IMG/VR virus record: IMGVR_UViG_3300035661_000038
Location: 17,956 to 81,955 of that record
Source of the DNA: a virus
Reading direction: 5' to 3' (one strand)
Length of the DNA: 64,000 nt
In this document: one piece after another, positions 3,293 to 60,914 of the stretch
Layout: each line of letters starts with the position of its first letter
Position numbering within the stretch: the first letter of the stretch is position 1
The notes under the pieces: generated by a model
Seen by the model: only the letters and a program-made list of their open reading frames with translations
The model's database searches: none
What the model was told of the DNA's origin: nothing
Program-made: the position numbers and the translations under genes

Positions 3293-3314
3293 GACCAAAA
3301 AGCGCCTTTTGGTC
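3293..3314. repeat. 22-bp dispersed palindrome copy 1 (spacer AGCGCC)
   Basis: GACCAAAAAGCGCCTTTTGGTC, intergenic. Confidence 0.95.
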
Positions 3315-3330
3315 GCTGCCCCCGAGAGGC

Positions 3331-3543
3331 TCACTGGCCGCGCTTCGTGGCCCACTTCATCAGCGGGTTGTCCGAGCCGGCGCCCGCCTTGCCTCCGCTC
3401 TTCTTGGCCGTCTTCTCGTTGGCCGACGAGCTCTCAGTGTCCGACCCCGAGTCGCTCGACGAGCTCTCGATGTCCGACCCCGAGTCGCTCGACGAGGAAT
3501 CGGAACCCGCGATCTTCTTCTTGATGAACTCCGGCATGGACAT
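3331..3543 (-). CDS. Small Ser-rich hypothetical protein
   Basis: 70 aa with an internal 30-bp tandem duplication (SSSDSGSD twice); GGAG SD. Confidence 0.5.
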   Translation of the reverse strand: MSMPEFIKKKIAGSDSSSSDSGSDIESSSSDSGSDTESSSANEKTAKKSGGKAGAGSDNPLMKWATKRGQ

Positions 3544-3616
3544 CGGTGTTGCTCCGCGTCGAGGGATGGCGGGGCGGTGCGCCCCGCAAGCTCACCCCGC
3601 CGACGCTATCACGCAC

Positions 3617-5554
3617 TCACGAGCCGAACACCCCCGCCATCCGCGACTGCGTGCGCGAGGCGGCCGCCTTCGAGACATCACGCTGGAACGCGACGAATAC
3701 GCGATCCGGATCCTGGTCACGGAAGTCCTGCTTGAGGTTGAACGTCTGCCCGCCGTTCATGTTGATCGCTGCGCCCTTGCCGGCCGAGTTGGAGATGATC
3801 TTCTTGAGCTGCTCGCCGACGAGTGACTTGAGCGTGGCGTTCTTGATGTTGTCGCCGAACCCCTCCAGCGCCCCGCTCGCGAGTATCCCCGACTCGATGA
3901 GCACGCGCTGGAGGTCTTTCGACTTTTCGAAGACGCCCTCTGCGTACTTGCGCGCTGCATCGTCGTGAGCCTTCGTCGCGGCCTGGTACGCCATCACGAA
4001 GTCCGCCGCGCCGCCGAAGTCGTTCGTCTTCGCCTTGAGCGCCGCCTGATGGAACGCTTCGCCGCCGCCACTGGTGACGGCGTACGAGTTGATGTCGAGC
4101 GCGCCCTGGATGTAGCGATGGATCTCGTCCGCGCTCATCCCCGCCGCCGTCGCGGCGTCGTGGAACTTTTGCTGCGCCTTCTGGAGCTTGTCGATCGGCG
4201 CGTTCATGTCGCCAGCGATCCGGTTCATCTTCCTCAGCGCGCTCTCGGTCTTCGAGTCGAGCTCCCCCGGCACCGCACTACTGCCGGTGCCCGTGGCCAT
4301 CTCGAAACCCTTCTTCGCGACGTAGCGCACCCCCTCCGAGAGCCCGCCAGTGACAATGCCGCTGATGATGCGGCTTGCGGTCATCGTGTAGTCGACGATC
4401 GCGCGCGCTGCGTCGACGACATCTTTGAACGCCTTGGCGACGGATGCGCCGTCATTCTTGATGTCGTCCCAGGCATCGAGGATGTCGTCCATCGTCGTCG
4501 AGAGCGAATTGCTGATCGAATTGGCGTCGTTCGACTCCAATGAGACGAACGTGCGCATGAAGTCGCCGACGAACTTGATGAACTCGGCGACCCGTTGACC
4601 GAAATTCTTCGCGTACGTGGCGATGAGCTCCTGGTGCTCCAGGAAGAACGTGCGGATGACGTTGATCTCGGAGATGACGGCCTTGACGATCGGCGCGCCC
4701 ATGTCTTCGAGAATCTGGCGCTTCATGTCGGCCATCGACTGCTTGGCCGCGTTGAAGCTCAGGGGCATCTCTTTCGCTTTCTCAGCCATCTTTGTGACGG
4801 CCTTCTCCCCAAGCTCCAGCATCTTGTCGGGAGACATCTTTTGGAGCTGCGTGGCGACCTGCTTCGCGTTGCCGTGGAGCACGCTCGTCGCGGCGATGAG
4901 CTGAACCACCGGGTTCTTCGCCCTCACAACGCCTGCCTCCATCGCGGCGAACCCCTCCGACAGCTCGCTCATGCCGAGCCCCGAGATGCGCCCCGCCTTG
5001 GCCATTGCCGTTGTGAGCTCCTGGACCTGATCGACGCTCTTGCCCGAGCGCTCAGCGATCGCCGTAAACGCGTCGGTCATCTGCTCTGCCGAAACGCCCA
5101 TCGCAATCGCGGTGTCTTCGAGCTCGTTGTGGACGAGCTTGGAGACACTTTTGATTTGATTGAGCGATGCGTTCTCCCCCGCCATCATCATCATCGCGGA
5201 GCCGACCTTCTTGACCTCCTCGCCCTCCACCATCGCCGCATGGAACGCCGATTCGGCGAGCGCACCCGCACCCGCGATGCCCGCGCCGATCGCTGCGACG
5301 CCCGCCGCCATCGCGACCACCGAGCCCTCGACGACGTACTTCATGTTCTCGAAGCCGCTCGTCGCCGACTTGTGCCCCTTGGCGAGCCCCGTGAAATACG
5401 CATCCGCGCTCTTCTCGTTGGCATGGGTCTGCTGCTCGACCTTCTTGGACGCCGCCGCAACGCGACCAAGCGAGGTTTCGATCTGCTTCGCCGTCTCGGC
5501 CGCGACATCATCGAGCACCAGTCGAATCCGAACCTCAGCCGACGGGTCTGACAT
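3617..5554 (-). CDS. Tail tape measure protein
   Basis: 645-aa Ala-rich helical ORF directly after the frameshifted tail chaperone; N-terminal EVRIRLVLDD. Confidence 0.8.
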   Translation of the reverse strand: MSDPSAEVRIRLVLDDVAAETAKQIETSLGRVAAASKKVEQQTHANEKSADAYFTGLAKGHKSATSGFENMKYVVEGSVVAMAAGVAAIGAGIAGAGALAESAFHAAMVEGEEVKKVGSAMMMMAGENASLNQIKSVSKLVHNELEDTAIAMGVSAEQMTDAFTAIAERSGKSVDQVQELTTAMAKAGRISGLGMSELSEGFAAMEAGVVRAKNPVVQLIAATSVLHGNAKQVATQLQKMSPDKMLELGEKAVTKMAEKAKEMPLSFNAAKQSMADMKRQILEDMGAPIVKAVISEINVIRTFFLEHQELIATYAKNFGQRVAEFIKFVGDFMRTFVSLESNDANSISNSLSTTMDDILDAWDDIKNDGASVAKAFKDVVDAARAIVDYTMTASRIISGIVTGGLSEGVRYVAKKGFEMATGTGSSAVPGELDSKTESALRKMNRIAGDMNAPIDKLQKAQQKFHDAATAAGMSADEIHRYIQGALDINSYAVTSGGGEAFHQAALKAKTNDFGGAADFVMAYQAATKAHDDAARKYAEGVFEKSKDLQRVLIESGILASGALEGFGDNIKNATLKSLVGEQLKKIISNSAGKGAAINMNGGQTFNLKQDFRDQDPDRVFVAFQRDVSKAAASRTQSRMAGVFGS

Positions 5555-5665
5555 GGGGTCTCTCCCGCGCCCCTCACGGGCGCTAGGGCGCGCGAGGGCG
5601 CCCCGCTCGTCACTCTACCGGCCCGCGCACCCGGAGGCCGCTAGAACGGCTCCCCGGGCCTCGCG

Positions 5666-6663
5666 TCACACCTCCCCGAGCAGGTCTTCACTCCCGCCGC
5701 CCTCATCGTCCAGGAGCTCCTTGAGATCCTGGAATTTCTCATCAAGCACCGACACCGGCAGATCGTCCCAAACGAACATCGACTGGCGCCCGTAACGCGC
5801 GAGGAAAACGATCTGCCGTCGCCGCGCCTTCTTCGCGAGCTCGATGTCGTAGTCGACGAACAGGTGCCAGTGCGCGTCGATGAGAGTGCCGTACACCACG
5901 AGGAGCCGCCGGATCGTCTCCTCGATCTCGCGCTCCTCTTCTGCGTCGCAATCGCCCTCCGCGCGCCTTACGGCGAGCGAACCGCGCTTCTGACAGCGAC
6001 GCAGCGCAGTAGAAAATCCACCGTCTCCTCGCCGCTCGCGTTATGCGCGCGGTGGTAGAGGCCGATGATGAGGCGGCGGCCCTTGGCGCCGATCTCGCGC
6101 CAGAACGTCTCTACGTTCGAGAGCGGCCCCTGGGTCCAGTCGCACTTCATCCCGTCGATCGACCGGAGCATCTGCTTCGCGAGCTCGCCGACCGCGCGCT
6201 GGGAGTCGCCACCGGCGCGCTTGTAGGCGGCGTTCTCGTCGGCGGGCGTCAGGTCCCAGAGGATGCACGTGCGGTCGCCCTTGCCCGGGGTGCGCGTGAG
6301 GCCCTTCCGAATCCTGACGAAGTACACCTGGACGCCGGGCGGGATCTTGAACCCGTCGGGCACCTTCGCCCACGAAGGGAGCTTGCGCGGATCGCTGCAC
6401 TCACGCATCTCCGCATCGCGCGTGTCCTCTTCCTCGTTCTCGCTTGCGTCGTCACCGTCCTCGTCGACGGCGATGACCGGTTGGTCGGGCTCCTCTGCGT
6501 CGGCTGCGATGCTCGCGGCCTCGTCGTCACTCGCCCGCTTGTCGATCGTGGCCTTGGCTGCCGCCGCGAACCCCGTCGACTTCGGCGCGGTCGCGGCCCC
6601 GAGGATCGACGCTTTCGGGTCTGCGGGTTCCGTCTCGATCAGGTCTTCGATGTCCATCGTCAT
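5666..6663 (-). CDS. Tail assembly chaperone, -1 frameshift product (G-T type)
   Basis: Slippery G GAT TTT at 6013-6019; the -1 frame stays open into ORF 5666..5899. Confidence 0.75.
5968..6663 (-). CDS. Tail assembly chaperone, short form
   Basis: Between tube and tape measure; GGAGG SD before ATG 6663. Confidence 0.75.
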   Translation of the reverse strand: MTMDIEDLIETEPADPKASILGAATAPKSTGFAAAAKATIDKRASDDEAASIAADAEEPDQPVIAVDEDGDDASENEEEDTRDAEMRECSDPRKLPSWAKVPDGFKIPPGVQVYFVRIRKGLTRTPGKGDRTCILWDLTPADENAAYKRAGGDSQRAVGELAKQMLRSIDGMKCDWTQGPLSNVETFWREIGAKGRRLIIGLYHRAHNASGEETVDFLLRCVAVRSAVRSP

Positions 6664-6706
6664 GCGCCTCCGAGTGACGAAGCTACACCGCGGCATTGAC
6701 CGACGC

Positions 6707-6955
6707 ATGACCGAGACGCGAATCGAGGGAACCCCCACCGGCGCGCTCGATGTGAAGCGCTTCTACATGCGCGACGTGTACCTCGTCGCGAGGTGCCCCA
6801 AGTGTGACTACGAGACCAAGCACGACTTCGCGAGCGACTACCTCGCCTATCCGGAGGTGAACCGCCCGTTTGACCACGGCTGCTACTGCCCCAAGTGCGA
6901 CCACGAGTGGACCGTGCGCCTGACGCTCTCACTCGCCCTCGCGGTGACGTCATGA
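6707..6955 (+). CDS. Small zinc-ribbon protein (CPKC twice)
   Basis: MTETRIEG...RCPKCDY...YCPKCDHEW; ATGA overlap with the next gene. Confidence 0.65.
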   Translation: MTETRIEGTPTGALDVKRFYMRDVYLVARCPKCDYETKHDFASDYLAYPEVNRPFDHGCYCPKCDHEWTVRLTLSLALAVTS

Positions 6956-7290
6956 GCAAGACCACCGCCGAAGAACGCGCCTACCAAGACGGTCGGCGCG
7001 AGACGTTCGCGCGCTTGCTCTCGCACTTCGCCAGCGAGCTCTACACGACGCGCCCCAACATGCTCACGTGCTCGCCTGAGAAGCGATGCGCGGTGCTCGA
7101 AGCCGAGCGCCTCGACACCATCACCGCGCTCCGCGAGTTCTGCGCTGAGCTCGGATACAACGATTGGCCCGACTCGCTGTACCTGCGCGACGTCGTGGCG
7201 AAGCACCTCGCGCGCACGCAGCGACAGCGATTCAGCGACCGTCTGCGCGAACTCGCAAACGACGCTTTCGAGAAGCTGCCGCCGAAATAG
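6952..7290 (+). CDS. Hypothetical protein
   Basis: MSKTTAEE...NDWPDSLYLRDVVAKHL; coupled to the upstream ORF. Confidence 0.6.
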   Translation: MSKTTAEERAYQDGRRETFARLLSHFASELYTTRPNMLTCSPEKRCAVLEAERLDTITALREFCAELGYNDWPDSLYLRDVVAKHLARTQRQRFSDRLRELANDAFEKLPPK

Positions 7291-7438
7291 GAAAGACCCC
7301 CGTGGGGCGGAGGCGCGACCGGACCAAGACCCGGATTCCTTCCCACGAGGGCCACATCATCGAGCTCGCTCGGGAGGAGACGAGCCCGATCCGATCGCGC
7401 CGCCGGGGCGCTCTCGCGCCGCCCGGCCTTGGTGAATC

Positions 7439-7873
7439 TCAGAGCTGCGGTTGGAAGTCGTCGCACTCGAACGACATCTTCACCTTCACGTAGTCGCCAC
7501 GCGACGACACCGCCACCGGCGTCGCGCCCCACGCGACATCGGGGAAGAGCACCGTGGGCGTCGTGCCGTCAGGGAAGTTGCAGATCGCGACCACGTTGAA
7601 CACGAGGTCGGGCTGCACCCGCGACGCCTTGTCCTTGATGGCGGCGAGGAGCCGGAACCAATCCGACGAGTGAAGGTGGAGCTCGAAGTCCCCCTTGCAC
7701 CCGTTGTAAATCGAGTCCTTCCGGTTGGTCTTCTCGCCGAGGTAGCCCTGGCTCTTGATCTCGAACTCCGGCTCGAAGTTGAAGTTCTGGATCTCGGTGA
7801 GCGTGTCCTCCAGGTCGGCGCCCCGGGTGATGAGCAACTGCACTTCCTGTCCGCGGATCCTCTGCTTGGCCAC
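7439..7873 (-). CDS. Tail tube protein
   Basis: 144-aa beta-rich ORF right after the sheath; AGGAG SD. Confidence 0.75.
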   Translation of the reverse strand: MAKQRIRGQEVQLLITRGADLEDTLTEIQNFNFEPEFEIKSQGYLGEKTNRKDSIYNGCKGDFELHLHSSDWFRLLAAIKDKASRVQPDLVFNVVAICNFPDGTTPTVLFPDVAWGATPVAVSSRGDYVKVKMSFECDDFQPQL

Positions 7874-7911
7874 GTGTGTTCTCCTTTCGAGTTACCCGCG
7901 ACTCACGCGGC

Positions 7912-10179
7912 CTAGGGGAGCTGCTCGACGACGGAGACCGTCGTGCCGACCGTCGCCTGAATGACGATGAAGTCCATCGTCGAGAGCGTCCGCACGTTCA
8001 CGATCACCCGGAACATCCCCGCGGCGATTGTCTCGGGTGTGTTCGGCGTCACGGCGTCGACCGTGTAGCCGGCGATGCGCTGCGCGGCGGGTTGCTTCGA
8101 CGAGAGGAGTCCTTCGAGGAAGCTCGTGATCTGCCCGGCAAACGCCTTGCGTCGCGCCTGGGTGTTGACCTTCTTGCCATATCGCTTCGCGAAGATCGCG
8201 ATCGAATCCTCGACGTAATCAGCCATCCGTCGGCGGTTGATGTTGACGAGGCTCGGGTTGGCCGTCGGGTCGACGCTCGTGACGCCGCTCTGGAAGACGG
8301 GCACGCCCGCGTCGATGCGCAGCGCGCAAATGCCCGCCTTCTTGAACGCCGTGTAGTCGTCGACGAGGAGCGGGCTGACCTTCGACTGCGCGCGCGCCTG
8401 CGTGTCGACGCCGTTCACCGCCACGAGATAGTCGGTCTGCTCGCCCGGGTTCTGCTCGGGCTGCTGCTGGCTCATGATCGACGCAAGGAACCCATCGGCC
8501 CCAACGTCCACCGAACCGTCGGCGGTGAAGCCGACGCCACCCGAGAGGCCGACGCGCGCGATGACCGGCACCGTCGTGTTCGCCCCCGGCCACACGTAGA
8601 TGACCCGCTGGTCGCGGTACGCGCCGACGCCCGGAGCAACGGTGGACGACTTGGCCGCGGCCTTGGGCGTGCCGAGGGGCGGGCGGATGATGGCGATGCG
8701 CCCGAGGCACCCGCCCGCGCTCGCCGCGATGGCGTTGGCGCGGAGCGCATTGCGCACGGCGTTCGACTGGCGCGCCGAGTAGACGATGTTCACGTCACTC
8801 GACGCCGAGCTCGGGTCGAGGGTTGCATTGAGCGCCGTCTGGTACGCGGCGTCGATTTGCGTCTCGGTGAGCGCGGCGCTCGTGGCTTGCGCGTTGATGA
8901 CGGAGAACGACCCCGCCGTGATTGGCGTCGTCGACGAGACGGTGTTGATGTACGCGGCCGCGGCCGCGATTCCGCTGCCGTCGTCGGTTGCGTGTCGCAC
9001 GGGCACCGACCACGGCCCCGCCGTCGACGCTGCGACACCGCCGATGGTGACGCCGCTCGCCGAGAACACGATGTCCTGCGTTGTGACGAACGTCCTCGTC
9101 GCGCGCGGCGTGCTGTTGTGGACGATGGTCCCCGCGGGAATGAGCCCCGAGGTCGGACGGCTCGCGGTCGCCGTTGCTCCGACGACGAAACCAAGCGCGG
9201 TGGCGGTCGTGTGCGTGCCGACGGTGATGGAGCTCGCGACGGTCGCCGACACGCGCAGCGTCCCATCCGGAAGCGTGTCGACGAGGGTGTTTGCGATCGC
9301 AGCCTCGATGACCGCCTTGACTTCGGCGGGGGTGACGGCGGCGATGTTGGCAAGGTTCTTCGAGCCGGTGCCCGTGGTCGTCCCTGCGGTCAGGTTCAGT
9401 GCCGCGAGCACGCCCGCCGAGCCGGCGATGATGCGGACTTGGCCGCCGGTGCCGAGCTGTCGACCCGTGAGGCGAAGCTGGCCGCCATCCGTATCGGCGA
9501 AGTTGAACCCGGCGTAGAGGTTGATACGCGCGGCGACGAGGGCGAACGTCGTGTCGCCCGCGAGGAACGTCACCGTGAAGTTCGGGTGGACGTTGATGTC
9601 GTCGAACCCGAGCGTCAGCGTCTCACCCCCGACGAACCCCGCCGGCGAGCCTGCGCCCGCGCCGGTGACGGTCGCGGCAGTCGCGTCGAACGTCGCGTCG
9701 ACCTGACCGGCGCCGAGATCGAACGAGACGATCTGGCCTGGCGCGAGCACGTACCGGAACGCGCTCGCGCCGAGCAGGAAGGGCAGCGCGGTGAAAGCGA
9801 CGCTGCCGACACTCGTATCGACGCGGCACACCTGGAGCGCGGAGAACTTCTTCCCCGACAGCTGCACCGCGCCGTTGCCGTTCCACGTCTCGCCGACGAT
9901 CACGTCGTCGGCGTAGCGGATGCGCGCGCACGGGTTGTTTGCCTGGGAGAGGGCGCCGCCGATGTACCCGAGCCCGCCGAACGTCGTCTGCACGTCCGTC
10001 GCGCTCACCACGTCGGTCGGCACGTTGTACGGCCCGTTCTCGAACTCGCCGACGAGCAGCACCTTGCCGGCGCCGACTGCGGTGATCGACTCGGGCGGGG
10101 TCAGATCGAGGATGTTGACGGCCTCGACCTGGAGCAGCACATCAAGACCAGGATCGTCCGTGAACTTGCGGATGAACAT
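7912..10179 (-). CDS. Contractile tail sheath protein
   Basis: LVGEFENGP N-terminus; C-terminal NINRRRMADYV...VNVRTLSTMDFIVI sheath signature; GGAGG SD. Confidence 0.87.
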   Translation of the reverse strand: MFIRKFTDDPGLDVLLQVEAVNILDLTPPESITAVGAGKVLLVGEFENGPYNVPTDVVSATDVQTTFGGLGYIGGALSQANNPCARIRYADDVIVGETWNGNGAVQLSGKKFSALQVCRVDTSVGSVAFTALPFLLGASAFRYVLAPGQIVSFDLGAGQVDATFDATAATVTGAGAGSPAGFVGGETLTLGFDDINVHPNFTVTFLAGDTTFALVAARINLYAGFNFADTDGGQLRLTGRQLGTGGQVRIIAGSAGVLAALNLTAGTTTGTGSKNLANIAAVTPAEVKAVIEAAIANTLVDTLPDGTLRVSATVASSITVGTHTTATALGFVVGATATASRPTSGLIPAGTIVHNSTPRATRTFVTTQDIVFSASGVTIGGVAASTAGPWSVPVRHATDDGSGIAAAAAYINTVSSTTPITAGSFSVINAQATSAALTETQIDAAYQTALNATLDPSSASSDVNIVYSARQSNAVRNALRANAIAASAGGCLGRIAIIRPPLGTPKAAAKSSTVAPGVGAYRDQRVIYVWPGANTTVPVIARVGLSGGVGFTADGSVDVGADGFLASIMSQQQPEQNPGEQTDYLVAVNGVDTQARAQSKVSPLLVDDYTAFKKAGICALRIDAGVPVFQSGVTSVDPTANPSLVNINRRRMADYVEDSIAIFAKRYGKKVNTQARRKAFAGQITSFLEGLLSSKQPAAQRIAGYTVDAVTPNTPETIAAGMFRVIVNVRTLSTMDFIVIQATVGTTVSVVEQLP

Positions 10180-10389
10180 CGCAACGCCTCCGACTGGTGA
10201 ACTCGGTCCCGGCGCGCCTTCCGGTCTCGATGGAGCGAGACTCGCACGCACCCGTCAACGGTGTCACGCGCCGACGTGCTCGCGGACGCGTTACTGCCCC
10301 GCCTGCGCGTCCACGAGCGTCGGGTGACATCCCGGAGCCCCAACCGGTCGCGCGCGTCCTAGCGCCCCTCGGGGCGCCCGCGTGCGCGG

Positions 10390-10411
10390 GACCAAAAAGC
10401 GCCTTTTGGTC
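10390..10411. repeat. 22-bp dispersed palindrome copy 2 (AGCGCC)
   Basis: Overlaps the TGA stop of 10410..11171. Confidence 0.95.
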
Positions 10412-11171
10412 AGGGCGTCCGAACGATCGTCGGTTCGGTGACGGCGCCGTCGTCGGCGAGCTCGGCGGCGGTCGCCGGATTGAACGCATCACCCGGCGCC
10501 TTCACGTCGACGAGCGCGCCCATGTTGGTCTCGACGTAGTTCACCAACGCGACCTCTGTCAGCACCATCATCACCTGGATCTCGGCGATGAAACGGCGCT
10601 TGGTGTTCGAGCCGTAGTCGCGTGAAAGCGATCGTTTCTGCACCTGAAACGCGACGAGCTGGTTGTAGTAGCTCGGCATCTTGAAGCGGATGCCGAACAT
10701 GCACTCCGTCGGCGTCAGCGCCGCGACGATGCCTGCGACGAGCCCGCGCCTCATCGCGATCGTCGGCGCGACGACTTCAATCGTAAACGTCTCGCGGTAC
10801 TCGCTCATCCACTGCACGACCGTCCCCGGCCAGTAGACGTCGCGCGATTCCTCTTCGATGAAGTTGCCGAGCCCCAGCGCATCGCTCGTGCCCTCCGCGG
10901 GTACGAACGTCACCGCGGGAAGCTGCGCATCGTCCGCGTCCTCGCTGGGTTCGATCTTGATGTTCGCCGACGGCACCTGGAACGGCACCGGTGGCCCGCC
11001 CACATCGCCCGCCCGGTAGAACGTCAGCTCCGAGAGGTACAGCTTGAGCACCTTCAACGCAGCGGTGCGTCCGTCGTGCGGCTGAGGCGGCGGATCGGGG
11101 CGCGGCGGAACGACCTCGCCGAAAGGCTCGCGCCAGATCAGAGAGCGGAGGCGCTGCGAGAACGTGGGCAT
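10410..11171 (-). CDS. Putative tail terminator / neck protein
   Basis: 253 aa, LPAVTF motif, immediately upstream of the sheath. Confidence 0.5.
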   Translation of the reverse strand: MPTFSQRLRSLIWREPFGEVVPPRPDPPPQPHDGRTAALKVLKLYLSELTFYRAGDVGGPPVPFQVPSANIKIEPSEDADDAQLPAVTFVPAEGTSDALGLGNFIEEESRDVYWPGTVVQWMSEYRETFTIEVVAPTIAMRRGLVAGIVAALTPTECMFGIRFKMPSYYNQLVAFQVQKRSLSRDYGSNTKRRFIAEIQVMMVLTEVALVNYVETNMGALVDVKAPGDAFNPATAAELADDGAVTEPTIVRTP

Positions 11172-11181
11172 GACGCCCAGC

Positions 11182-11712
11182 CTACCGCCCGAGCTCGCGC
11201 GAAACCTCTTCCTGCACGAACTGCTGCACCTTGCCGAGGGCGCGCTCCATCACGCGCAACCCGCGCCCGCCGCCAAAGATGCCCCGTTTCTTCATCGACT
11301 GCGCAATCGCCCACGCCGCGCTGCGCGCCGCCGCCGCGGGATCCTCGCCCGGCTCGACTTGGACGATGCCCTTGCGCTGCGCCCACGCCGCGATCTCGTC
11401 GATCATTCGGCGCCCGATCTTGATGTTCTCCGCACGCGCGCCCCACTCGATGATGGGCGCATACGGCAGCGGGTTGTAGACGTCGGAGCTCAACGCCGTG
11501 TGCGTGACCGCCCACGCCATCCGGTAGAGCCCGCGGTCGACAGGCAGATGCGCCCCAGGCACTTCTGCCGGCGTGTTGGGGATGACCGTCGACTTGATGT
11601 GCGAGAGCAGCCGCGTCGCTGCGCTGTAGACGCCGCGCCGATACGCATTCTGGACCTGCGCACCGATCGCATTCCCAAGGTCCGGGAGCTGGCGAATGTC
11701 GAAGCTCTGCAC
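11182..11712 (-). CDS. Neck / tail-completion protein (HK97 gp10-like)
   Basis: PVDRGLYRMAW...NPLPYAPIIEWG motif. Confidence 0.6.
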   Translation of the reverse strand: MQSFDIRQLPDLGNAIGAQVQNAYRRGVYSAATRLLSHIKSTVIPNTPAEVPGAHLPVDRGLYRMAWAVTHTALSSDVYNPLPYAPIIEWGARAENIKIGRRMIDEIAAWAQRKGIVQVEPGEDPAAAARSAAWAIAQSMKKRGIFGGGRGLRVMERALGKVQQFVQEEVSRELGR

Positions 11713-11721
11713 GCCCCGAGA

Positions 11722-12312
11722 CTACTCGTTGTCCGCGTCGGGCATTTCCTCAAGCTCGTCGTACTCAGGGGTCTTCGCCGGGATGTCCGTGCGCCCGCCA
11801 AACGTGCCGACGCGCTCCAGCGCCATCACCCACTGAACGTTCTCCGCGTCCATCGCTGGCGGCGAGAGGAGCCGAAATCGCATCGGCTCGGGCGTCGCCT
11901 CATGGCGGCCGTCCTCGAAGAGCTCGTAGTAGAAGTCCCACGGCTGCGGGATCGTGTCGACGCGCCGCCCATCGGGCAGGAGCTTCCCCGAGAGCGTGCC
12001 GAAGTCGAACGACGTCGACACTTCGCGCAGCCGAATCGATCCGACCGGGTAGGCGCCCGCCGCGAATGGCCCGCGTGTGATCGCATCAAGCGACTCGCTG
12101 ACCGGCGTTGGCAGAATCTCGACGCGCGCGATCTCCTGGTCGGTGCCCTCGCCGCGCTCCTCTCCCGTCGCCCGCGTCCACACGAGGAATACCCGGTACG
12201 GGCGCGCCCCGAGATTGGTCGCGATCTGGCGTACGCGGTCCGCCACGCCACCCATCCGAGCGACGAGCGACCGCTTAGCCTCGCGCGGCGAAAGAGGGCG
12301 CGGTTTGGGCAT
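11722..12312 (-). CDS. Putative head closure protein
   Basis: Position in the head-tail block; GGAGG SD before MPKPRPL. Confidence 0.45.
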   Translation of the reverse strand: MPKPRPLSPREAKRSLVARMGGVADRVRQIATNLGARPYRVFLVWTRATGEERGEGTDQEIARVEILPTPVSESLDAITRGPFAAGAYPVGSIRLREVSTSFDFGTLSGKLLPDGRRVDTIPQPWDFYYELFEDGRHEATPEPMRFRLLSPPAMDAENVQWVMALERVGTFGGRTDIPAKTPEYDELEEMPDADNE

Positions 12313-12319
12313 CGCCGCC

Positions 12320-12631
12320 TCAGCCGTCCATGCCCGCGTCCGGCGTCGCGACCGGCGCACAGCTCTCGCCGCGAACCTTTGCCAGCGCCACACGGTGCGC
12401 CGACAACACGACGTCGAGCCACGGCACCAGCGTCGCATCGATCCCGCAGATCGCCGCGACCTCGGGCGTCGGCTTGAGCAGGTTCGCGACGATGCACGCG
12501 CTCTGCGTGCCGTCGATGACCCACTTCGCGTCCTTCTTCGCCTCCGCGCACGTCGCGCCGAAGCCACTCATCGCCACCGCGCCGCCGAGAGCGAGCGCGC
12601 GCGCGCGCATCGCAATTCCGAGCTTCATCAT
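12320..12631 (-). CDS. Small exported/lipoprotein-like protein
   Basis: Basic then hydrophobic N-terminus ending GFGATC; AGGAGG SD. Confidence 0.5.
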   Translation of the reverse strand: MMKLGIAMRARALALGGAVAMSGFGATCAEAKKDAKWVIDGTQSACIVANLLKPTPEVAAICGIDATLVPWLDVVLSAHRVALAKVRGESCAPVATPDAGMDG

Positions 12632-12637
12632 GTCCTC

Positions 12638-13072
12638 CTAGTTGCTCACGGGCACGTTGATCGACCCACCGACGCCCGACGGCCCGTCGCCGGCGATCGA
12701 TCCGCCAAAGCGGAAGTCGAAGGGGTTGGGCATCACGCCGAGCAGGTTGCCGAGCGCGCTGCGCCAGTACTTGTACCGCTGAACCAACTTCTCGAAGTGG
12801 TCGTCGCGGAGCTCGATGGATCCAACCTTCTTGGCTTCGAGGTCAGGCATCGACTCAGCGAGCGTCTCTTCGATCTCGTCGAGCCGCGCGAGGTAGTCGC
12901 GGAAGAGGCCCAGCGCCTCAGGCAGGATCTTGGGGAACGCCCCCTCGATCATGAACTGCGTCTGTGTCGCCGCCGGGATGCCCCCGTTGAAGGTCATCGC
13001 CGACGTGACGTTGAGGTAACCGAGGTGCTTGCGAGCTCGCACCTGGTCCTCGGGGCTCACATGCACGGGCAC
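12638..13072 (-). CDS. Putative head-tail adaptor
   Basis: DQVRARKHLGY and KKVGSIEL pattern; downstream of the capsid. Confidence 0.5.
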   Translation of the reverse strand: MPVHVSPEDQVRARKHLGYLNVTSAMTFNGGIPAATQTQFMIEGAFPKILPEALGLFRDYLARLDEIEETLAESMPDLEAKKVGSIELRDDHFEKLVQRYKYWRSALGNLLGVMPNPFDFRFGGSIAGDGPSGVGGSINVPVSN

Positions 13073-13104
13073 TGGTCCATCTCCTTCCGCTGACTACCGC
13101 CCAC

Positions 13105-13539
13105 TCACGCAGTCATCGTCATCGCGTCGTCCTTGGGCTCCTCACTCGCGGGCGCTGCGGGCGGTGAAGGCGGATCGATGTCTTCGAGCACGATGCCCTG
13201 CGATCGCAGGTACTCGATGTCGTACTGCGTGCTCTCGACGATCTTCCCCGCGGGCATCGCCGACTTGAAGCCGTTGAAGACGACGTGACCGCCGTTCATC
13301 ACCTGATAGCGGCGCGCCTTCGGGGCGTTGGGGCGCTCCTCACGCATCGCGCTCGCGATGACGTGGCCCTGCTGGCTCGCGGCGCGAGGGGCCTGGGCGG
13401 GGATGATGCCCGCCGAGCCGCCGCGCATCGACGGCACCGCACTCACGCCGATCGGGCGCTGGATGAATCCTTCGTTTTCTCCCCCCGCGGCGGGCGGGGG
13501 AGCCTTCTGCTGCGTGTTCTGAACCGGAGATCGGGCCAT
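13105..13539 (-). CDS. Hypothetical virion-associated protein
   Basis: GGAGG SD; follows the major capsid gene. Confidence 0.55.
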   Translation of the reverse strand: MARSPVQNTQQKAPPPAAGGENEGFIQRPIGVSAVPSMRGGSAGIIPAQAPRAASQQGHVIASAMREERPNAPKARRYQVMNGGHVVFNGFKSAMPAGKIVESTQYDIEYLRSQGIVLEDIDPPSPPAAPASEEPKDDAMTMTA

Positions 13540-13630
13540 GTAGGTTGCACCTCCGCGGCCCACGATAGCAAAGCGGCGTCGACACGCGAGGATCGACGCC
13601 GCTTTGCTCACTCCGGATCGCGCGAGAGGA

Positions 13631-15254: not shown

Positions 15255-15276
15255 GACCAAAAGGCGCTTTTTGGTC
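15255..15276. repeat. 22-bp dispersed palindrome copy 3 (GGCGCT)
   Basis: Overlaps the TGA stop of the scaffold gene. Confidence 0.95.
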
Positions 15277-17052: not shown

Positions 17053-17075
17053 CGGATGTCGCGGGCGCGCCGCCC

Positions 17076-18067: not shown

Positions 18068-18089
18068 GACCAAAAGGTGCCTTTTGGTC
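18068..18089. repeat. 22-bp dispersed palindrome copy 4 (GGTGCC)
   Basis: In the 5' UTR of 17839..18042. Confidence 0.95.
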
Positions 18090-23765: not shown

Positions 23766-23787
23766 GACCAAAAGGCGCCTTTTGGTC
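23766..23787. repeat. 22-bp dispersed palindrome copy 5 (GGCGCC, perfect)
   Basis: Overlaps the TGA stop of 23786..24340. Confidence 0.95.
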
Positions 23788-32534: not shown

Positions 32535-32556
32535 GACCAAAAGGTGCCTTTTGGTC
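32535..32556. repeat. 22-bp dispersed palindrome copy 6 (GGTGCC)
   Basis: 1 nt after the stop of the ParB-domain gene. Confidence 0.95.
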
Positions 32557-34462: not shown

Positions 34463-34484
34463 GACCAAAAAGCGCCTTTTGGTC
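34463..34484. repeat. 22-bp dispersed palindrome copy 7 (AGCGCC; arms extend to 14 bp)
   Basis: ACTGACGACCAAAA-AGCGCC-TTTTGGTCGTCAGT at 34457-34490, just after stop 34486. Confidence 0.95.
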
Positions 34485-36462: not shown

Positions 36463-36484
36463 GACCAAAAAGCGCCTTTTGGTC
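36463..36484. repeat. 22-bp dispersed palindrome copy 8 (AGCGCC)
   Basis: Between stop 36486 and the terL -10 box (36453-36458). Confidence 0.95.
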
Positions 36485-39025: not shown

Positions 39026-39402
39026 CGGGGGAGCTCCCGCCTCGGGTCGCGACCAAAAGGCGCTTTTTGGTCGTCGGCGAGGAGCCCTCCAGAGGCGCTA
39101 GGAAGCGCCGGGGAGTCCGGACGGGTAGACGGACGTCCGGCGCCCGAAAACGCCTCCACGTGCCCAAAGAACGCCGCGGCGGCGGCGTCGTGCTCCACGG
39201 CCGCAATTCGGTAAGCCTCTGCCCGCCCAAGCACCCGGTAGCGCGCCATCTGCTCCGAGCGAATCACCCGCATCCACTGCTCGCGGCGCGCGTCGGCGCA
39301 GAGCTCGGCGCGCATCGAGGCGCTCAGGAACCAATCCGACGCCACGAGGACATTCGACGTCACCGAGACCATCGCCAACACGACCAACCAACCCGGGATC
39401 AT
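39022..39402 (-). CDS. Hypothetical membrane-anchored protein
   Basis: Hydrophobic N-terminus MIPGWLVVLAMV. Confidence 0.45.
   Translation of the reverse strand: MIPGWLVVLAMVSVTSNVLVASDWFLSASMRAELCADARREQWMRVIRSEQMARYRVLGRAEAYRIAAVEHDAAAAAFFGHVEAFSGAGRPSTRPDSPALPSASGGLLADDQKAPFGRDPRRELPR
39051..39072. repeat. 22-bp dispersed palindrome copy 9 (GGCGCT)
   Basis: In the 3' end of ORF 39022..39402. Confidence 0.95.
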
Positions 39403-44342: not shown

Positions 44343-44364
44343 GACCAAAAAGCACCTTTTGGTC
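44343..44364. repeat. 22-bp dispersed palindrome copy 10 (AGCACC)
   Basis: In the 5' UTR of the DUF932 gene. Confidence 0.95.
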
Positions 44365-46393: not shown

Positions 46394-46852
46394 CTAGATG
46401 CCGCCGCGACCAAAAGGCACCTTTTGGTCGTCGTCGCGCGCCGCCTCGATGGCGTCGATGAACGCCTGGGCAACCTCGTTGGGGGGCGACTCGTCCTCAG
46501 GCACGAGGTCGAGCCCCCCAGGCGCCGGCAGCCCCGTCTCCCAACTCCAATCATGAGCCCGGTCGCGCCACCCGGGTAGGTGTGCATCGGCAATCACCTC
46601 GGGGCTCACCGCAGGCTCCTCGGGGTCGCGCTCCGCGTACTCGAAGCCGCGCACCCACCCGGACCGATACGCCTCACGCGCGAGCTCCTCGGCCATCGCA
46701 AGCCACTCCCCACGTGTCGCGCGAGGATGAAGCGAAGCGAACACACGCGCCATCTCAGCGATCCGCTCGGGCGGCTCCGGCCCCTCGTAGAAGTGCCCGG
46801 CAAGCTTCTCCGCGAGCCGCGTCACCCACCGCCGCACTCGATCCGAGATCAC
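46394..46852 (-). CDS. Hypothetical protein
   Basis: GTGA coupling to the MTase stop; REAYRSGWVRGFE. Confidence 0.55.
   Translation of the reverse strand: MISDRVRRWVTRLAEKLAGHFYEGPEPPERIAEMARVFASLHPRATRGEWLAMAEELAREAYRSGWVRGFEYAERDPEEPAVSPEVIADAHLPGWRDRAHDWSWETGLPAPGGLDLVPEDESPPNEVAQAFIDAIEAARDDDQKVPFGRGGI
46408..46429. repeat. 22-bp dispersed palindrome copy 11 (GGCACC)
   Basis: In the last codons of 46394..46852. Confidence 0.95.
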
Positions 46853-53044: not shown

Positions 53045-53497
53045 CTAAAGCCCCACTTCACCGAGCCGGCGTTCGACCCGCGCGAGCAACGCCGCGTGGT
53101 CCGGGTAAGACGATGCCGCGACGATCTCCCCCGCGACGTCGCGCGCGCCGACGCGCTGGATGTGGCGGACGCGCTGCTGAGTGACGACAGCGCTACGCCG
53201 CGTCGGCAGGACGCGGACAGCGACGGCGTAGCGCTCGACCCAATCACGCGCCCGAGCAACATCCGCCAGCGGGCAGTCGACCGGCGGACGGAGCCGGACG
53301 ATCGACCCCTTCACGAGCCCACCGTACGTCTCCTCGGCGTTCGAGTGCGTCCAGAACGGGCTGTCCGCGTCGAAGGTGACGAGACGCGCGGTGGCGACCT
53401 CGACGTGCTTGGCGAGCGGCGGACCAAAAGGCGCCTTTTGGTCGTCGACGGACGCCGGCGTCGGCATCGAGATCCTCGGCATCGGGATCCTCGGCAT
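53045..53497 (-). CDS. Hypothetical protein, possibly a detached Mre11/SbcD C-terminal domain
   Basis: TGATG start; MPRIPMPRISMP; lies between sbcD-like and sbcC-like genes. Confidence 0.5.
   Translation of the reverse strand: MPRIPMPRISMPTPASVDDQKAPFGPPLAKHVEVATARLVTFDADSPFWTHSNAEETYGGLVKGSIVRLRPPVDCPLADVARARDWVERYAVAVRVLPTRRSAVVTQQRVRHIQRVGARDVAGEIVAASSYPDHAALLARVERRLGEVGL
53422..53443. repeat. 22-bp dispersed palindrome copy 12 (GGCGCC, perfect)
   Basis: In the low-complexity 5' part of 53045..53497. Confidence 0.95.
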
Positions 53498-53591
53498 CAG
53501 AATCCCCTCACGATCCGCGCTTCGACTTCGGCGGTCGTGCACGCATCGACGATGCTCTGCCCCTCCAACCGATCGTTCTCTCGCGACATCC

Positions 53592-57450: not shown

Positions 57451-57529
57451 TGGGTCTCTCTTTCTTGGACCACGGGGCCAACCCCCACGGTCAATCCCCC
57501 CTCGGGGGGAGTCAGGCGACGATACGCCT

Positions 57530-58162
57530 CTACTTGCGAAGCGTCGTCAACATCGTGTCGAGGGTGCGACACCGCCCTTTCCAAAGCTCGGCGAACCGCT
57601 CCAGATGCTCCGTCGTCTTGCGGAGCCGAATCGATCGCATCTCCTGGTCGCGAAACTCGTCGGCGAAGTTGCGCGCGCAGAACAGCTCCAGGTCCTCTTT
57701 GGTGATGGCCTTGTTGCGCGTGCCATCGGCCTTCTCACGCTGAAGCTCGCGATTGGCGCGCTCCATCATCGCCGCACGAATCGGCTTCATGTCGAGGTCG
57801 TACCGCTCCTGCTCGGCGCGCGCGGCGAGATAGAGCTGATGCGCCTCGCGCGCGTTGGACTCCGCGTCGTCGAGCGCCTTGCGGAGGGTGCCGTAGTCGT
57901 TGCGGTTCTCGCCGACCTTGAGCGCCGCCTCCAGCCGGTCGTACACCGGCAAAACGTCGACAGTGAAGACGCGCTCGACGAGCTTGCCAAAGTCGCCACC
58001 GAGCTTCGGCGACTTGCCGATGAACTCGTCGAACGGATCGGGCGTGGGCGGGTCCGGAATCGGAGGCGTCGCGGGGGCGTCGGGCGCCTCAACGAGCATC
58101 GGGGATGGCGCCGTCTCGGGCGTAGTAGTCACGGGCAACGTCGTTCGGGGCACTCGGGCCAT
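57530..58162 (-). CDS. UvsY-like recombination mediator
   Basis: Helical C-terminus KAITKEDLE...AELWKGRCRTL; lies between pol and SSB; AGGAG SD. Confidence 0.55.
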   Translation of the reverse strand: MARVPRTTLPVTTTPETAPSPMLVEAPDAPATPPIPDPPTPDPFDEFIGKSPKLGGDFGKLVERVFTVDVLPVYDRLEAALKVGENRNDYGTLRKALDDAESNAREAHQLYLAARAEQERYDLDMKPIRAAMMERANRELQREKADGTRNKAITKEDLELFCARNFADEFRDQEMRSIRLRKTTEHLERFAELWKGRCRTLDTMLTTLRK

Positions 58163-60914
58163 CGGAGCTCCTATCCGGCGCCGAGGTGGCGCCGGTCGCA
58201 AGATGCCGCGCGAGCTCCGCGGCGAGCTCAGGCGAGCCATCAACACGCGCCTTGAGGTCGAGCTCGACGACAGCGCCGTTCTCATGATGCAGCCGCAACA
58301 CCATCGCCCGCGCGCCCGGATGAGCGGCAAGGATCGCGCGCACCAGCGCCGGATCCGTCACCGCGAACATCTCCATCGCCAGGTCGACGTAGAACGGCAC
58401 CTCTGCCGAGCGGATCTGGCCCGCGATGACGGGCGTCTCGGGCGCGACCAAAAAGCGCCTTTTGGTCTCCCGGGCACGCGAGGAGCTCGCTGGCGCGTCG
58501 AAGAGGCTCACCTGGGCCGACGGGGCGTCCGGCACCTCGGAGGCGGCAGACGCCCCCTTCCCGGCGACCGACGCCCGGACCTTGCGCGGCTTGGGCGGGC
58601 GCGACTTGCTGAACCGCTTCCAATCACAGCCGGGGAACGCCGCCGCCAAAAGCCGCTCCGCCGGCGGGTAGACGAGGTTCTCCCATAGGTAGTGCCGGTC
58701 ACACTCCCCGGCATAGTCGTCCGCCGGGATGACGACAGCGGGCGTCGTCGACGCGTCGAGCACGACAAACCCCACACGCGTCCCCTCGCCGACCTCGACA
58801 CCGCGGCGCGCGAGCTCGCGACCGACGACGACGTGGCGCGGCTGAGCGCACTCACCGCCATCAGCCTTCTTGCGGGCCTTGTACTGACCAAGCTCACGCG
58901 AGAGGTTCTTGGTGATGATAACGTCACACGCGGGCAACTCGTCGCCGAGCACGTGGGCGCGCATCGCCTCAACCGCCGCGACGTACGCCGCGGGATCGTC
59001 CGTCGCCAGCGCGAACGGCTCCTCCCAATCGCCCACGAGCAGCTTCACAACGGTCTCCTGGAGCGCGCGCGCAAGCCGCGATGAGTCACCGCGCTTGTAC
59101 TCCAGGCCCTTGATCTCCGGCTTCGAGTCGCGCTGAGCCGCCTTGCCCTTGTAGTGGAGATAACGGCCGACGTACTTCTTGCCAGCGACGAAGACCACAC
59201 GGTCGAACGCTTTCTCGTACGCGACATAAACATCGTTCTCGCGACACCCCTGCTCCGCGACGAGCCGCGGGTAGAGCTCCGCGTTGCACCACTTCGTAAA
59301 TTCGCGAAACTCATCGACCGTGCACCCGACGACGAAGATCGAATCAGTGTCGATGTAGATGACCTTCCACCCACGCTCCTCGGCGGCGTGTTTGGTGTGC
59401 TTGATGAGCCACGCACACGTCTGCGTCACGCTCTCGGCGATCTCCTTGTCGAAGTAACGCGAGAACGGCGAGCCGATGACCCCGTAGAACGAGTTGATCG
59501 CAGCCTTGTAGGCGGCGGCGTGGCGCGCAGCATTCTCCCAATCGGGCGTCCCCGGAGGAAGACTCGACTTCTTCGCATCCCAATCGTCGCGCAACGCGAT
59601 GAGCTGCTTGAGCGCCAGCGGCAACATCCCCTCGATGTCAGTGCGGAAGGCCACCTTCGTTGTCGGCGCCTCGCACGCGAGCTCGGGCGATGAATGGTTG
59701 GCGCGGAGCGTCCTGAGCTTTGTCTCAGGGCTCATGTTCCAGGTGATGATCGCGCTCGGGTACTGGCGCCGAAAGTCAGCGACGTGGACATCACGGATCA
59801 CGCCATCCATCGTCGGCTTGAGCACATAGGCACCAGCGAACTGCTCGTTGATCTCCTGAAACTCCTTCGTCGGGAAGTGCACCCCGCGCTCGCGTCCAAG
59901 CCGAAACATGAACGCGTCAACCTGCGAGATCGGGTGGAGCCCGCGCGAGTCGAGAAACACGCCAGCAGCCTGGGCGAGAGTCCACGACAGCTCGATGTAG
60001 CCGGTCTTCGCCTCGATCTTGCGAAGCAGGTGCGTGTCCTGCGCGTTGTACTTACGGAGACGCTCGCGACGCACGCCGCCCGCCTCCCACTCCTGCCATG
60101 TCTTCGACGCATCGAAGTCGTCCTTGCCCTCGTTGATGAGAGCCATCGCGACGTCCTGAAGCTTGAGCGAGGTCTTGTCGTCGCCCGAGTCGCTCTCGCG
60201 GTGGTTGCGCTTGTAGCAAGCGAGGTGGTCGAGCCAGAGCCACCGCCGCACGTCGACGCGCGCGCGCACCTCACGTACGCGACCATGGAGGACGGGAAAG
60301 TCGAAACGATCACCGTTCCACGCGCACAAGAGCTCGAACGACTGGGCCGCGCGAAAGAACGACTCGATGAGCGCCTTCTCAGCAGCGTCAGTGTCGGCGG
60401 TGAGAAGCTCGCTCCACTCGTTGCCCGCATCGTCGACGAGCGCCCACGAGAGAATCCGCGCGCCGCCTTCGCGCGCCTTGGCAAAGGGCACCCGCGAATC
60501 AGTCTCCAAGTCGAAGTACCCGCGTCTCGGACGCGCGACGCGCGCGCCAATGTCCGTCATCCACCGGCGCACCGGGTGAACGTCACCCTCGAACGCCGGC
60601 GCTGCACCGAAAAACGGGTTCGCGATGCCCTCGTCGTTCGTCGGCTTGCACGCTTTCTCGCGCACGTAACGATCGCGCCACGAGATGCGCAACCACTCGC
60701 CCTCCGTCGCGACCGCGCGCACCGCCGCGTGGTTACGGATCGCGCGCATCCGATCCATGTCAACGTCGGCGACGCGGTGATAGCTAACCCACTCGGCGCG
60801 CACCGCGCGTGTCTCGGTCCCGCCATCAGCGGCACGGTAGAGCGCGACAATCTGATCCCCATCAAGCCACGCGTTGAGGATCTCGGGGGCGGGATGCTTG
60901 GAATCGAGCTGCAT
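58089..60914 (-). CDS. Family B DNA polymerase with 3'-5' exonuclease and C-terminal extension
   Basis: FDLET, WNGDRFD, YNAQD, DFRRQYPS, KAAINSFYG, IDTDS and KKY motifs. Confidence 0.95.
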   Translation of the reverse strand: MQLDSKHPAPEILNAWLDGDQIVALYRAADGGTETRAVRAEWVSYHRVADVDMDRMRAIRNHAAVRAVATEGEWLRISWRDRYVREKACKPTNDEGIANPFFGAAPAFEGDVHPVRRWMTDIGARVARPRRGYFDLETDSRVPFAKAREGGARILSWALVDDAGNEWSELLTADTDAAEKALIESFFRAAQSFELLCAWNGDRFDFPVLHGRVREVRARVDVRRWLWLDHLACYKRNHRESDSGDDKTSLKLQDVAMALINEGKDDFDASKTWQEWEAGGVRRERLRKYNAQDTHLLRKIEAKTGYIELSWTLAQAAGVFLDSRGLHPISQVDAFMFRLGRERGVHFPTKEFQEINEQFAGAYVLKPTMDGVIRDVHVADFRRQYPSAIITWNMSPETKLRTLRANHSSPELACEAPTTKVAFRTDIEGMLPLALKQLIALRDDWDAKKSSLPPGTPDWENAARHAAAYKAAINSFYGVIGSPFSRYFDKEIAESVTQTCAWLIKHTKHAAEERGWKVIYIDTDSIFVVGCTVDEFREFTKWCNAELYPRLVAEQGCRENDVYVAYEKAFDRVVFVAGKKYVGRYLHYKGKAAQRDSKPEIKGLEYKRGDSSRLARALQETVVKLLVGDWEEPFALATDDPAAYVAAVEAMRAHVLGDELPACDVIITKNLSRELGQYKARKKADGGECAQPRHVVVGRELARRGVEVGEGTRVGFVVLDASTTPAVVIPADDYAGECDRHYLWENLVYPPAERLLAAAFPGCDWKRFSKSRPPKPRKVRASVAGKGASAASEVPDAPSAQVSLFDAPASSSRARETKRRFLVAPETPVIAGQIRSAEVPFYVDLAMEMFAVTDPALVRAILAAHPGARAMVLRLHHENGAVVELDLKARVDGSPELAAELARHLATGATSAPDRSSDGPSAPNDVARDYYARDGAIPDAR
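58446..58467. repeat. 22-bp dispersed palindrome copy 13 (AGCGCC)
   Basis: In the polymerase C-terminal linker. Confidence 0.95.

Follow-up and report, generated by a model that had tools for sequence, protein, structure and literature searches.

Results

The palindrome and the genome that carries it

We analysed a stretch of 64,000 nucleotides (hereafter the window) that corresponds to bases 17956-81955 of the 81,955-bp IMG/VR virus record IMGVR_UViG_3300035661_000038, here also called G000, and that carries a dispersed 22-bp palindrome, GACCAAAA-N6-TTTTGGTC, in exactly 13 copies. The copies start at window positions 3293, 10390, 15255, 18068, 23766, 32535, 34463, 36463, 39051, 44343, 46408, 53422 and 58446 and are separated by gaps of 1.9-8.8 kb. 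A preliminary description of the same DNA, made from the sequence alone, had placed 13 copies at these coordinates and had read them as a DNA-level mark for a dimeric protein. Exact pattern matching bore out the coordinates, and the chance expectation for the motif is zero, none of 100 dinucleotide-preserving shuffles of the window having matched. A scan of the full genome, which the preliminary description had proposed, added three copies at genome positions 168, 7636 and 8946, hence a total of 16 for the whole record. The feature itself is real and striking.

The record has a GC content of 67% and 94-bp terminal repeats, is rated complete and comes from a microbial mat metagenome. A gene call based on GC content at third codon positions (GC3) places essentially all genes on the minus strand, and the identified genes are those of a myovirus: a tail sheath gene (7912-10179), a major capsid protein gene (13631-15034), a Mu-F-like gene (18145-19368), a ParB-like nuclease gene (32558-32950), the large terminase gene terL (34700-36445), a DUF932-like gene (42639-44312), the open reading frame (ORF) of a family-B DNA polymerase, PolB (58089-60947), and genes for a tape measure protein, a portal protein, RecA-like, SbcC/SbcD-like and RuvC-like (resolvase) proteins, a UvrD-like helicase and a DNA methyltransferase. 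Three other minus-strand genes are important below: one for a protein with a ParB N-terminal domain and an RHH-like C-terminus (48524-49318), one for a protein of 434 aa that we call g004 (61005-62309), and one for a FliA/ECF-like factor of the sigma-70 family (62344-63009), which comprises sigma regions 2 and 4, has a Sigma70_r2 match and whose profile matches the structures of FliA and of ECF sigma factors. No cultured relative was found by megablast, or by tblastn of the sheath, against INPHARED; the capsid protein had matches of only 25-28% in the cultured-phage search and the matches of PolB were distant. No paper on this phage clade was found in the literature.

Within the window, the 6-nt spacers as written are AGCGCC (five copies), GGCGCT, GGTGCC and GGCGCC (two each), AGCACC and GGCACC (one each), which reproduces exactly the counts of the preliminary description. 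Over the whole record and read in the sense direction, the spacers are GGCGCT (eight copies), GGCGCC, GGCACC and AGCGCC (two each), GGTGCC and GGTGCT (one each). The arms are invariant in this phage, and variation is confined to the centre positions 9, 11, 12 and 14. Degenerate copies are absent: with up to four mismatches allowed, the sole other match was an unrelated site with three. The half-site GACCAAAA occurs 13 times in the window, every time within the motif. Invariant arms around a variable centre are the usual pattern of operators, while the reverse is expected from RNA-binding proteins that read a loop or from hairpins that matter only as structures.

Location of the copies

Most copies lie at gene junctions and several of them 17-33 nt upstream of the next start, with a ribosome-binding site (RBS) in between. 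Six either overlap a TGA stop codon or sit 1 nt from one, as the preliminary description had reported (10390, 15255, 23766, 32535, 34463 and 36463). Among the three that overlap, copy 2 (10390..10411) covers the TGA of the gene 10410-11171 and precedes the tail sheath gene by about 140-210 nt, copy 3 (15255..15276, sense spacer AGCGCC) covers the TGA of the gene 15275-16123 and lies 220 nt upstream of the major capsid gene, and copy 5 (23766..23787), which is a perfect 22-bp palindrome, covers the TGA of 23786-24340 and precedes the ATG of 23239-23733 by 32 nt. The other three are found 1 nt past a TGA: copy 6 (32535..32556) after the ParB-like nuclease gene, copy 7 (34463..34484) after 34486-34689, and copy 8 (36463..36484) after 36486-36692. 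In copy 7 the dyad is extended to 34 bp (ACTGAC...GTCAGT), corresponding to an RNA hairpin of -22.3 kcal/mol. Copy 8 is 17 nt upstream of the terminase ATG and 4 nt upstream of a -10-like box, TAGCCT, the box being 7 nt before that ATG.

Copy 1 (3293..3314, sense spacer GGCGCT) is intergenic, 16 nt past the stop of a small ORF and 33 nt upstream of the GTG start, with an RBS, of the gene 1988-3259. Copy 4 (18068..18089) lies between the Mu-F-like gene, which stops 55 nt before it, and 17839-18042, whose ATG has an RBS and follows after 25 nt, and copy 10 (44343..44364) lies 30 nt upstream of the ATG, again with an RBS, of the DUF932-like gene. Two copies fall within the last codons of an ORF: copy 9 (39051..39072, sense spacer AGCGCC) in the called ORF 39022-39402, 25 nt upstream of the ATG of 38765-39025, and copy 11 (46408..46429) in the small gene 46394-46852, which is conserved; this copy is followed by GGCATCTA and precedes the ATG of 45955-46374 by 33 nt. 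The ORF 53045-53542, whose start is ambiguous, contains copy 12 (53422..53443), a perfect palindrome, in its 5′ part. Copy 13 (58446..58467) is read in frame within the PolB ORF, around codon 827, where the conserved polymerase body ends.

A promoter cassette is duplicated in the record. It is read on the minus strand and consists of an A-tract, TTGCAT-17-GAGACT, leader hairpins, an RBS and an ATG (early promoter cassette; genome positions 1-134 and 62546-62678, the latter at about 44591-44723 of the window). The copy at the genome start sits 35 nt after the last palindrome, and the second one about 230 nt upstream of the palindrome at 44343. The assembly contigs of one metagenome run (X1) break at this duplicated cassette.

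Palindromes in related phages

Alignments of the sheath and of PolB recovered about 130 related IMG/VR loci, and for 15 relatives the whole records were fetched. In 14 of these 15 there is a dominant palindrome of the genome's own, in 4-25 copies, and more families occur in further loci. Examples are GATTGGAAACCCGGGTTTCCAATC (18 copies), CTGGGAACCCGGGTTCCCAG (20), TGGAACTCGAGTTCCA (24), GACCGAAAGTCGACTTTCGGTC (about 10), CCTTGAGGTCGACCTCAAGG (25) and GATTCGAAAAGCGCTTTTCGAATC (14). The closest relative (G001), with a sheath 84% identical, carries GATCGAAAAACGTTTTTCGATC, which differs from the palindrome of G000 at 4 of 11 arm positions, all four changes being transitions and all being mirrored in the opposite arm. 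At the junction orthologous to that of copy 5 (23766), the flanks are conserved in G001 and the palindrome is respelled. Differently spelled palindromes occupy the same gene junctions in several genomes, and at the junction of copy 12 (53422) a palindrome is present in five relatives. Hence, looking for the motif in related phages, as the preliminary description had suggested, revealed privately spelled palindromes that are often kept at syntenic junctions.

The end of the conserved PolB body carries a palindrome in 7 of the 12 PolB genes compared; four of the seven have it in frame, two have it on the stop codon and one has it 62 nt past the stop. As for the PolB tail (58089-58445 of the window, minus strand), the ORF reads in four genomes through the palindrome into 33-125 non-conserved codons; in other genomes PolB ends at the palindrome. 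Over the clade, 177 of 217 copies are intergenic or in start-ambiguous 5′ ends, though 71-92% of all but one record is called coding.

In each of the 14 genomes tested, the copies were spaced more evenly than at random, with a coefficient of variation (CV) of 0.35-0.74 against about 0.9, and in 10 of the 14 they were also spaced more evenly than random gene boundaries (p<0.05). The preliminary description had raised the question of whether spacing rather than position is conserved; spacing is even in all 14 genomes, and gene junctions are also often kept. Even spacing fits a function exerted per domain better than it fits gene-specific hairpins.

Spelling does not follow descent. Four to five genomes have the identical core TGGAAACCC|GGGTTTCCA even though 51-65% of the positions of their PolB proteins differ, while the close relatives G000 and G001 already differ in spelling. 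Palindrome spelling does not track PolB divergence (rho -0.02). An alternative explanation of the sites would be that a protein of the host reads them (one of the ParB/Noc-like kind, for instance, or a nucleoid protein or global regulator), the spellings reflecting different hosts. The phages that keep the core are very divergent and have strongly differing candidate readers of their own, which favours this explanation, and so does the composition of the half-site, an A-tract plus C around a central CG, which recalls parS and the Noc-binding site (NBS). Against it, G000 and G001 already differ at the 4 arm positions given above, and host genomes are essentially devoid of the sites: in a search of one genome each of 185,579 species, the strict motif (with the observed class of spacers) gave one chance match, and the motifs of two relatives gave sporadic single matches, with no genome containing several. 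We regard a host reader as quite unlikely.

The same search bears on the possibility that the motif is an abundant host repeat, for which the preliminary description had proposed a scan of candidate hosts. A repetitive extragenic palindromic (REP) element or a miniature inverted-repeat transposable element (MITE) of the host was rejected on the single match among the 185,579 species genomes and on the absence of a Y1 (HUH) transposase (PF01797) from the phage genome. In metagenomes, the motif was found only as unrelated single copies in contigs of lower GC content (39-62%).

Double-stranded DNA mark or RNA hairpin

All 26 distinct perfect repeated palindrome families of the clade are symmetric through the dyad centre. 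The central dinucleotide is CG in 24 of these 26, as in the G000 consensus, compared with 238 of 573 (42%) single-copy palindromes in the same DNA. Symmetry through the centre favours the DNA reading, because an RNA tetraloop need not be self-complementary, and a pyrimidine-purine step at the dyad would be the preference of a protein that deforms the centre of its site. We also considered one-sided arm variants across the clade: a G-U pair was kept in the sense strand in 40 and in the antisense strand in 31, hence there is no bias towards pairing in the sense RNA. On the basis of the invariant arms with a variable centre, the central symmetry, the central CpG, the lack of a G-U bias and the even spacing, recognition of double-stranded DNA by a symmetric dimer is favoured over a plain RNA hairpin.

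An intrinsic (rho-independent) terminator was tried and rejected. No T-tract follows the copies, and copy 15255 is followed by a separate hairpin of its own with a T-rich tail. Terminator calling on the four copies in 3000-22900 gave no terminator-like site, and no Rfam family matched. The statement of the preliminary description that the copies are not plain terminators thus stands. The separate structure after copy 15255 lies between this copy and the capsid gene (15150-15250, minus strand), where a GC-rich hairpin with a T-rich tail is followed by a TTGACG box, and these look like an ordinary terminator plus promoter.

Other roles for a hairpin in the sense transcript were considered, that is a terminator or attenuator that needs no U-tract, a stabiliser of 3′ ends, or a processing site for a hairpin nuclease after stop codons. 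The copies fold as hairpins of -11 to -22 kcal/mol. Their contact with stops would fit such roles, since 6 of the 13 window copies touch a TGA, many copies of the relatives lie 0-6 nt past a stop and 22 of the 68 copies in long gaps lie close to the stop that precedes them. In sense RNA the asymmetric spacer of G000 yields a G-U pair in nine copies and an A-C mismatch in two. In addition, the flanks outside the core pair about twice as much as in shuffled sequence, and longer, copy-specific palindromes with stem extensions of 3-9 bp enclose 11 of 119 copies, so hairpin or cruciform formation matters at some copies, and some of them probably double as hairpins. Nevertheless, the stems are invariant rather than covarying, whereas the loop is variable in G000 and self-complementary in every perfect family; neither a T/U tract nor any conserved 3′ flank follows the copies; and the sense G-U pairs of G000 do not extend to a clade-wide bias. 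Moreover, many downstream starts are only 17-33 nt from a copy, RBS included, so that efficient termination would silence those genes, and some sites are kept inside ORFs, as in PolB. An RNA hairpin as the basis of the whole system is, in our judgement, unlikely.

DNA transactions

Another explanation is that the palindromes serve DNA transactions, as cruciform or hairpin sites for recombination-dependent replication, priming, resolution (by the RuvC-like and SbcCD-like proteins) or packaging, or that they are a selfish palindrome homogenised by gene conversion. The phage encodes RecA-like, SbcC/SbcD-like, RuvC-like and UvrD-like proteins, and the even spacing, the perfect symmetry through the centre and the fact that the spelling evolves in concert within each genome would all agree with this explanation. 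A palindrome of 22 bp is short for cruciform extrusion, though, and the copies have neither conserved flanks nor target duplications. They occupy syntenic positions and are not newly inserted. A Pfam search of five records (G000 and four relatives) found, with positive controls, no Phage_integrase (tyrosine recombinase) and no Resolvase (serine recombinase), in addition to the missing Y1 transposase. Contigs from four metagenome runs contained the same phage only, with no variants at the copies, and offered no usable evidence of rearrangement, their joints resting on 20-26-nt overlaps away from the copies. We regard such a role as very unlikely.

The preliminary description had also listed partition and recombination among the conceivable functions. 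The recombinase search just given speaks against recombination. As for partition, no ATPase of the ParA/SopA type (PF13614, PF01656) was found in G000, G002, G005, G008 or G009, with positive controls, which speaks against a role of that kind.

Relation to promoters

When the flanks of the copies were aligned, nothing was conserved at a fixed distance on either side, and the distance to -10-like boxes varies; a promoter of fixed geometry was rejected for these reasons. In the relatives there are many -10-only, leaderless promoter-like sites, in which GGCAT(C/G)AT or TANNNT is followed, after 7 nt, by an ATG. Over the clade, a -10-like box with a leaderless start lies within 34 nt after the palindrome in 18% of cases, compared with 5% of other gene ends, and where such a box follows, the palindrome covers the -35/spacer region. 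The preliminary description had stated that only one copy abuts a -10 box; this is roughly right in the window, but it misses the 3.6-fold enrichment of palindromes just upstream of -10-like boxes with leaderless starts that appears clade-wide.

In four relatives (G003, G009, G011 and G013), the sequence GCGGCAT(C/G)AT, followed after 7 nt by ATG, occurs 2-7 times more often in sense than in antisense. This suggests a host with leaderless translation, possibly an actinobacterium.

Candidate reader proteins

Three proteins had been named as candidate readers in the preliminary description: a DUF3102-like protein, which is g004, the protein with the ParB N-terminal domain and RHH-like C-terminus, and the ParB-like nuclease. 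The gene of g004 is a conserved early gene located between those of the sigma factor and PolB, upstream of PolB, and the three form a block across the clade. The protein consists of an N-terminal zinc ribbon (CxxC...CPxC), a helical domain and a small C-terminal beta domain, with disordered linkers before the helical domain. The model of the helical domain has a predicted local distance difference test (pLDDT) score of 89.7, and by structural alignment (VIA) it is closest to ParB bound to parS (6s6h, Z 7.2), followed by Spo0J (Z 6.1) and KorB (8qa8, Z 5.9; 1r71, Z 5.4); SopB, VirB and P1 ParB also align. Pfam matches were weak: of the 11 members, one matched HTH_ParB (E=0.0017) and two matched DUF3102. 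Foldseek, run with the full model and with the model of the domain, gave no match below E=0.001, and profile searches of the PDB sequences with g004, with its domain and with another protein (g017) were uninformative.

The presence of the block and that of the palindrome are associated. The 6 PolB loci without the sigma-g004 block have no repeated palindrome, while about 28 of 38 loci with the block have one by our own count, in a comparison that comprises few independent lineages and in which sigma is co-inherited with g004. The spelling of the palindrome also tracks g004 weakly (rho 0.24-0.27, partial Mantel p about 0.013). Taken together, the putative ParB/KorB-type fold, the association and the weak covariation lend modest support to g004, and we consider this predicted DNA-binding protein (61005-62309) the best, though a weak, candidate reader.

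The two other candidates gained nothing comparable. For the ParB N-terminal-domain protein (which the preliminary description had called ParB/RHH-like), no specific link to the sites was found. A comparison by eye of the RHH-like strand of g015 with the spelling gave no simple correspondence either. The ParB-like nuclease obtained no specific support as a reader and is present in 8 of 16 records. Between G002 and G003, which have a common palindrome, no unusually conserved small DNA-binding protein stood out.

The gene of the ParB N-terminal-domain protein adjoins that of an N6/N4 DNA methyltransferase (46849-48513, minus strand), and the two proteins match the two halves of a single PHROG profile named 'DNA methyltransferase'. 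Their sequences suggest a split ParB-methylase.

Discussion

Proposed function of the sites

We propose that the palindromes are docking sites on double-stranded DNA for a dimeric phage protein, hence a DNA-level mark, and we give this proposal about even chances of being right. The sites with their invariance, placement, spacing, synteny and private spelling, as well as the modelled fold of the candidate, are observed, and we infer from them that a protein binds, that it may be g004 and that transcription may be affected. The protein would contact the DNA at the two arms, GACCAAAA and TTTTGGTC, each of them a half-site, and the 6 bp between them, which include the CpG step, would act as a deformable hinge that it hardly touches. 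With about one site per 5 kb, the sites make up a grid, placed in the short gaps between co-directional genes or else in tolerant coding linkers, and the same grid extends across this clade of uncultured myoviruses with a private spelling in each lineage. The best candidate for the reader is the early protein g004, with its zinc ribbon and its putative ParB/KorB-type DNA-binding domain, encoded beside the phage sigma factor. The most likely consequence would be control of transcription throughout the genome. A protein bound right beside a -10 box would block access to the -35/spacer region of the -10-only, often leaderless promoters; elsewhere it may act as a roadblock or an insulator at gene ends, as KorB at its OB sites or the stoperators do.

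The reading of the preliminary description, a DNA-level mark for a dimeric protein and neither a plain terminator nor a single local operator, is thus supported indirectly by the invariant arms, the central dyad, the CpG, the even spacing, the private syntenic sites and the absence of the motif from hosts.

Several observations weigh against this proposal. Besides the pairing in the spacer and flanks and the stem extensions described above, 82% of the copies are not beside a recognisable promoter. The fold match of g004 is middling: Z values below 8 may reflect a common helical arrangement, and helical proteins of RuBisCO assembly score alongside. No member of the g004 family matched the ParB_N CTPase domain. 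One relative (G014) has both the sigma factor and g004 but no repeated palindrome, and about nine other loci likewise have g004 without one. Sigma covaries with the spelling almost as well as g004 does (p about 0.03). Finally, in genomes with the identical core TGGAAACCC|GGGTTTCCA the g004 domains differ at 57-77% of positions, and there is no simple correspondence between the recognition helix of g004 and the spelling of the palindrome.

In G014, a promoter-like cassette of about 90 nt is repeated 13 times in the region 26-38 kb (of the oriented record); its elements are an A-tract and a -35-like element as well as GGGTTTCGGTTTATGGT, a hairpin and an RBS.

Comparison with known systems

The closest description of a comparable feature is the dyad repeat of the Cluster O mycobacteriophages, a 17-bp element, TGTTCGG-N3-CCGAACA, dispersed in 34 copies, many of them between genes and about one in three inside ORFs or at their ends, with no meaningful orientation (Cresawn et al. 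2015, PMC4351075). Those phages lack an integrase and ParAB and are not temperate, and the authors predict a dimeric DNA-binding protein, leaving the function unknown (PMC4351075). The two sets of repeats share dispersed, invariant inverted arms, a variable centre, a partly intragenic location and, in G000, no sign of a temperate life style. They differ in arm length (8 in G000 versus 7), spacer (6 versus 3), copy number (16 versus 34) and sequence, and G000 is an uncultured myovirus, unrelated to those phages, whose genes all lie on one strand. Private spelling at syntenic junctions, even spacing and a central CpG are seen in the G000 clade and are not described for Cluster O in PMC4351075.

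The nearest mechanistic model is KorB and its OB sites. On the IncP plasmid RK2, KorB, a protein of the ParB family, binds dispersed palindromic OB sites near to or far from promoters and silences promoters both nearby and at a distance (McLean et al. 2025, PMC11790492). In both cases palindromes are dispersed over a replicon of tens of kb (16 per 82 kb in G000), and the modelled domain of g004 aligns to the DNA-binding domain of KorB, a weak match at the Z values of 5.4-5.9 given above. In contrast to KorB, g004 is without a detectable N-terminal CTPase domain of ParB, the ParB_N domain being found in the separate protein 48524-49318; no KorA-like partner was identified and no ParA was found. 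The absence of a ParA/SopA-type Walker ATPase from the five records searched also distinguishes it from ParABS.

Stoperators were a further comparison. In the Cluster A actinobacteriophages and in the Streptomyces phage R4, about 20-30 intergenic sites are distributed genome-wide; they are asymmetric 13-mers oriented with transcription, and they are bound by the monomeric immunity repressor of temperate phages (PMC5559632, PMC10276819). What the two have in common is a genome-wide set of intergenic sites with a lineage-specific spelling, and stoperator spelling varies with the specificity of the reader protein. The sites of G000, however, are dyad-symmetric, and neither an integrase nor a Resolvase nor a ParA-type ATPase was found in the five records, so lysogenic silencing of the stoperator kind, to which the preliminary description had pointed as an analogue, does not fit. 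A word search of the available literature for conserved intergenic palindromes in phages, and for the conserved inverted repeats of phiC31, gave no usable result.

A bolder version of the proposal would be that, throughout a clade of uncultured high-GC myoviruses, lineage-private palindromes form a grid of marks on the chromosome, placed more evenly than expected at random and read by a ParB/KorB-type protein that lacks the CTPase clamp and works with the phage sigma factor, and that this grid, as a device peculiar to viruses, either partitions a one-strand genome into domains of transcription or of the chromosome, or labels self DNA. Such a system would be distinct from operators, stoperators, parS and NBS; we regard it as doubtful.

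Significance

No function has been assigned to the dispersed dyad repeats of lytic phages, those of Cluster O among them, since they were described, and the clade reported here gives a comparative handle on them. In dozens of its genomes the junctions are shared and the sites respelled; it also offers a rule for the spacing, a constrained CpG at the centre and a few conserved early proteins as candidates, which are g004, the ParB_N/RHH protein and the sigma factor. If the reader were confirmed, the matched pairs of protein and site would be a natural set of orthogonal DNA-binding specificities, and they would show how transcription is organised in a large virulent phage whose promoters are -10-only and often leaderless.

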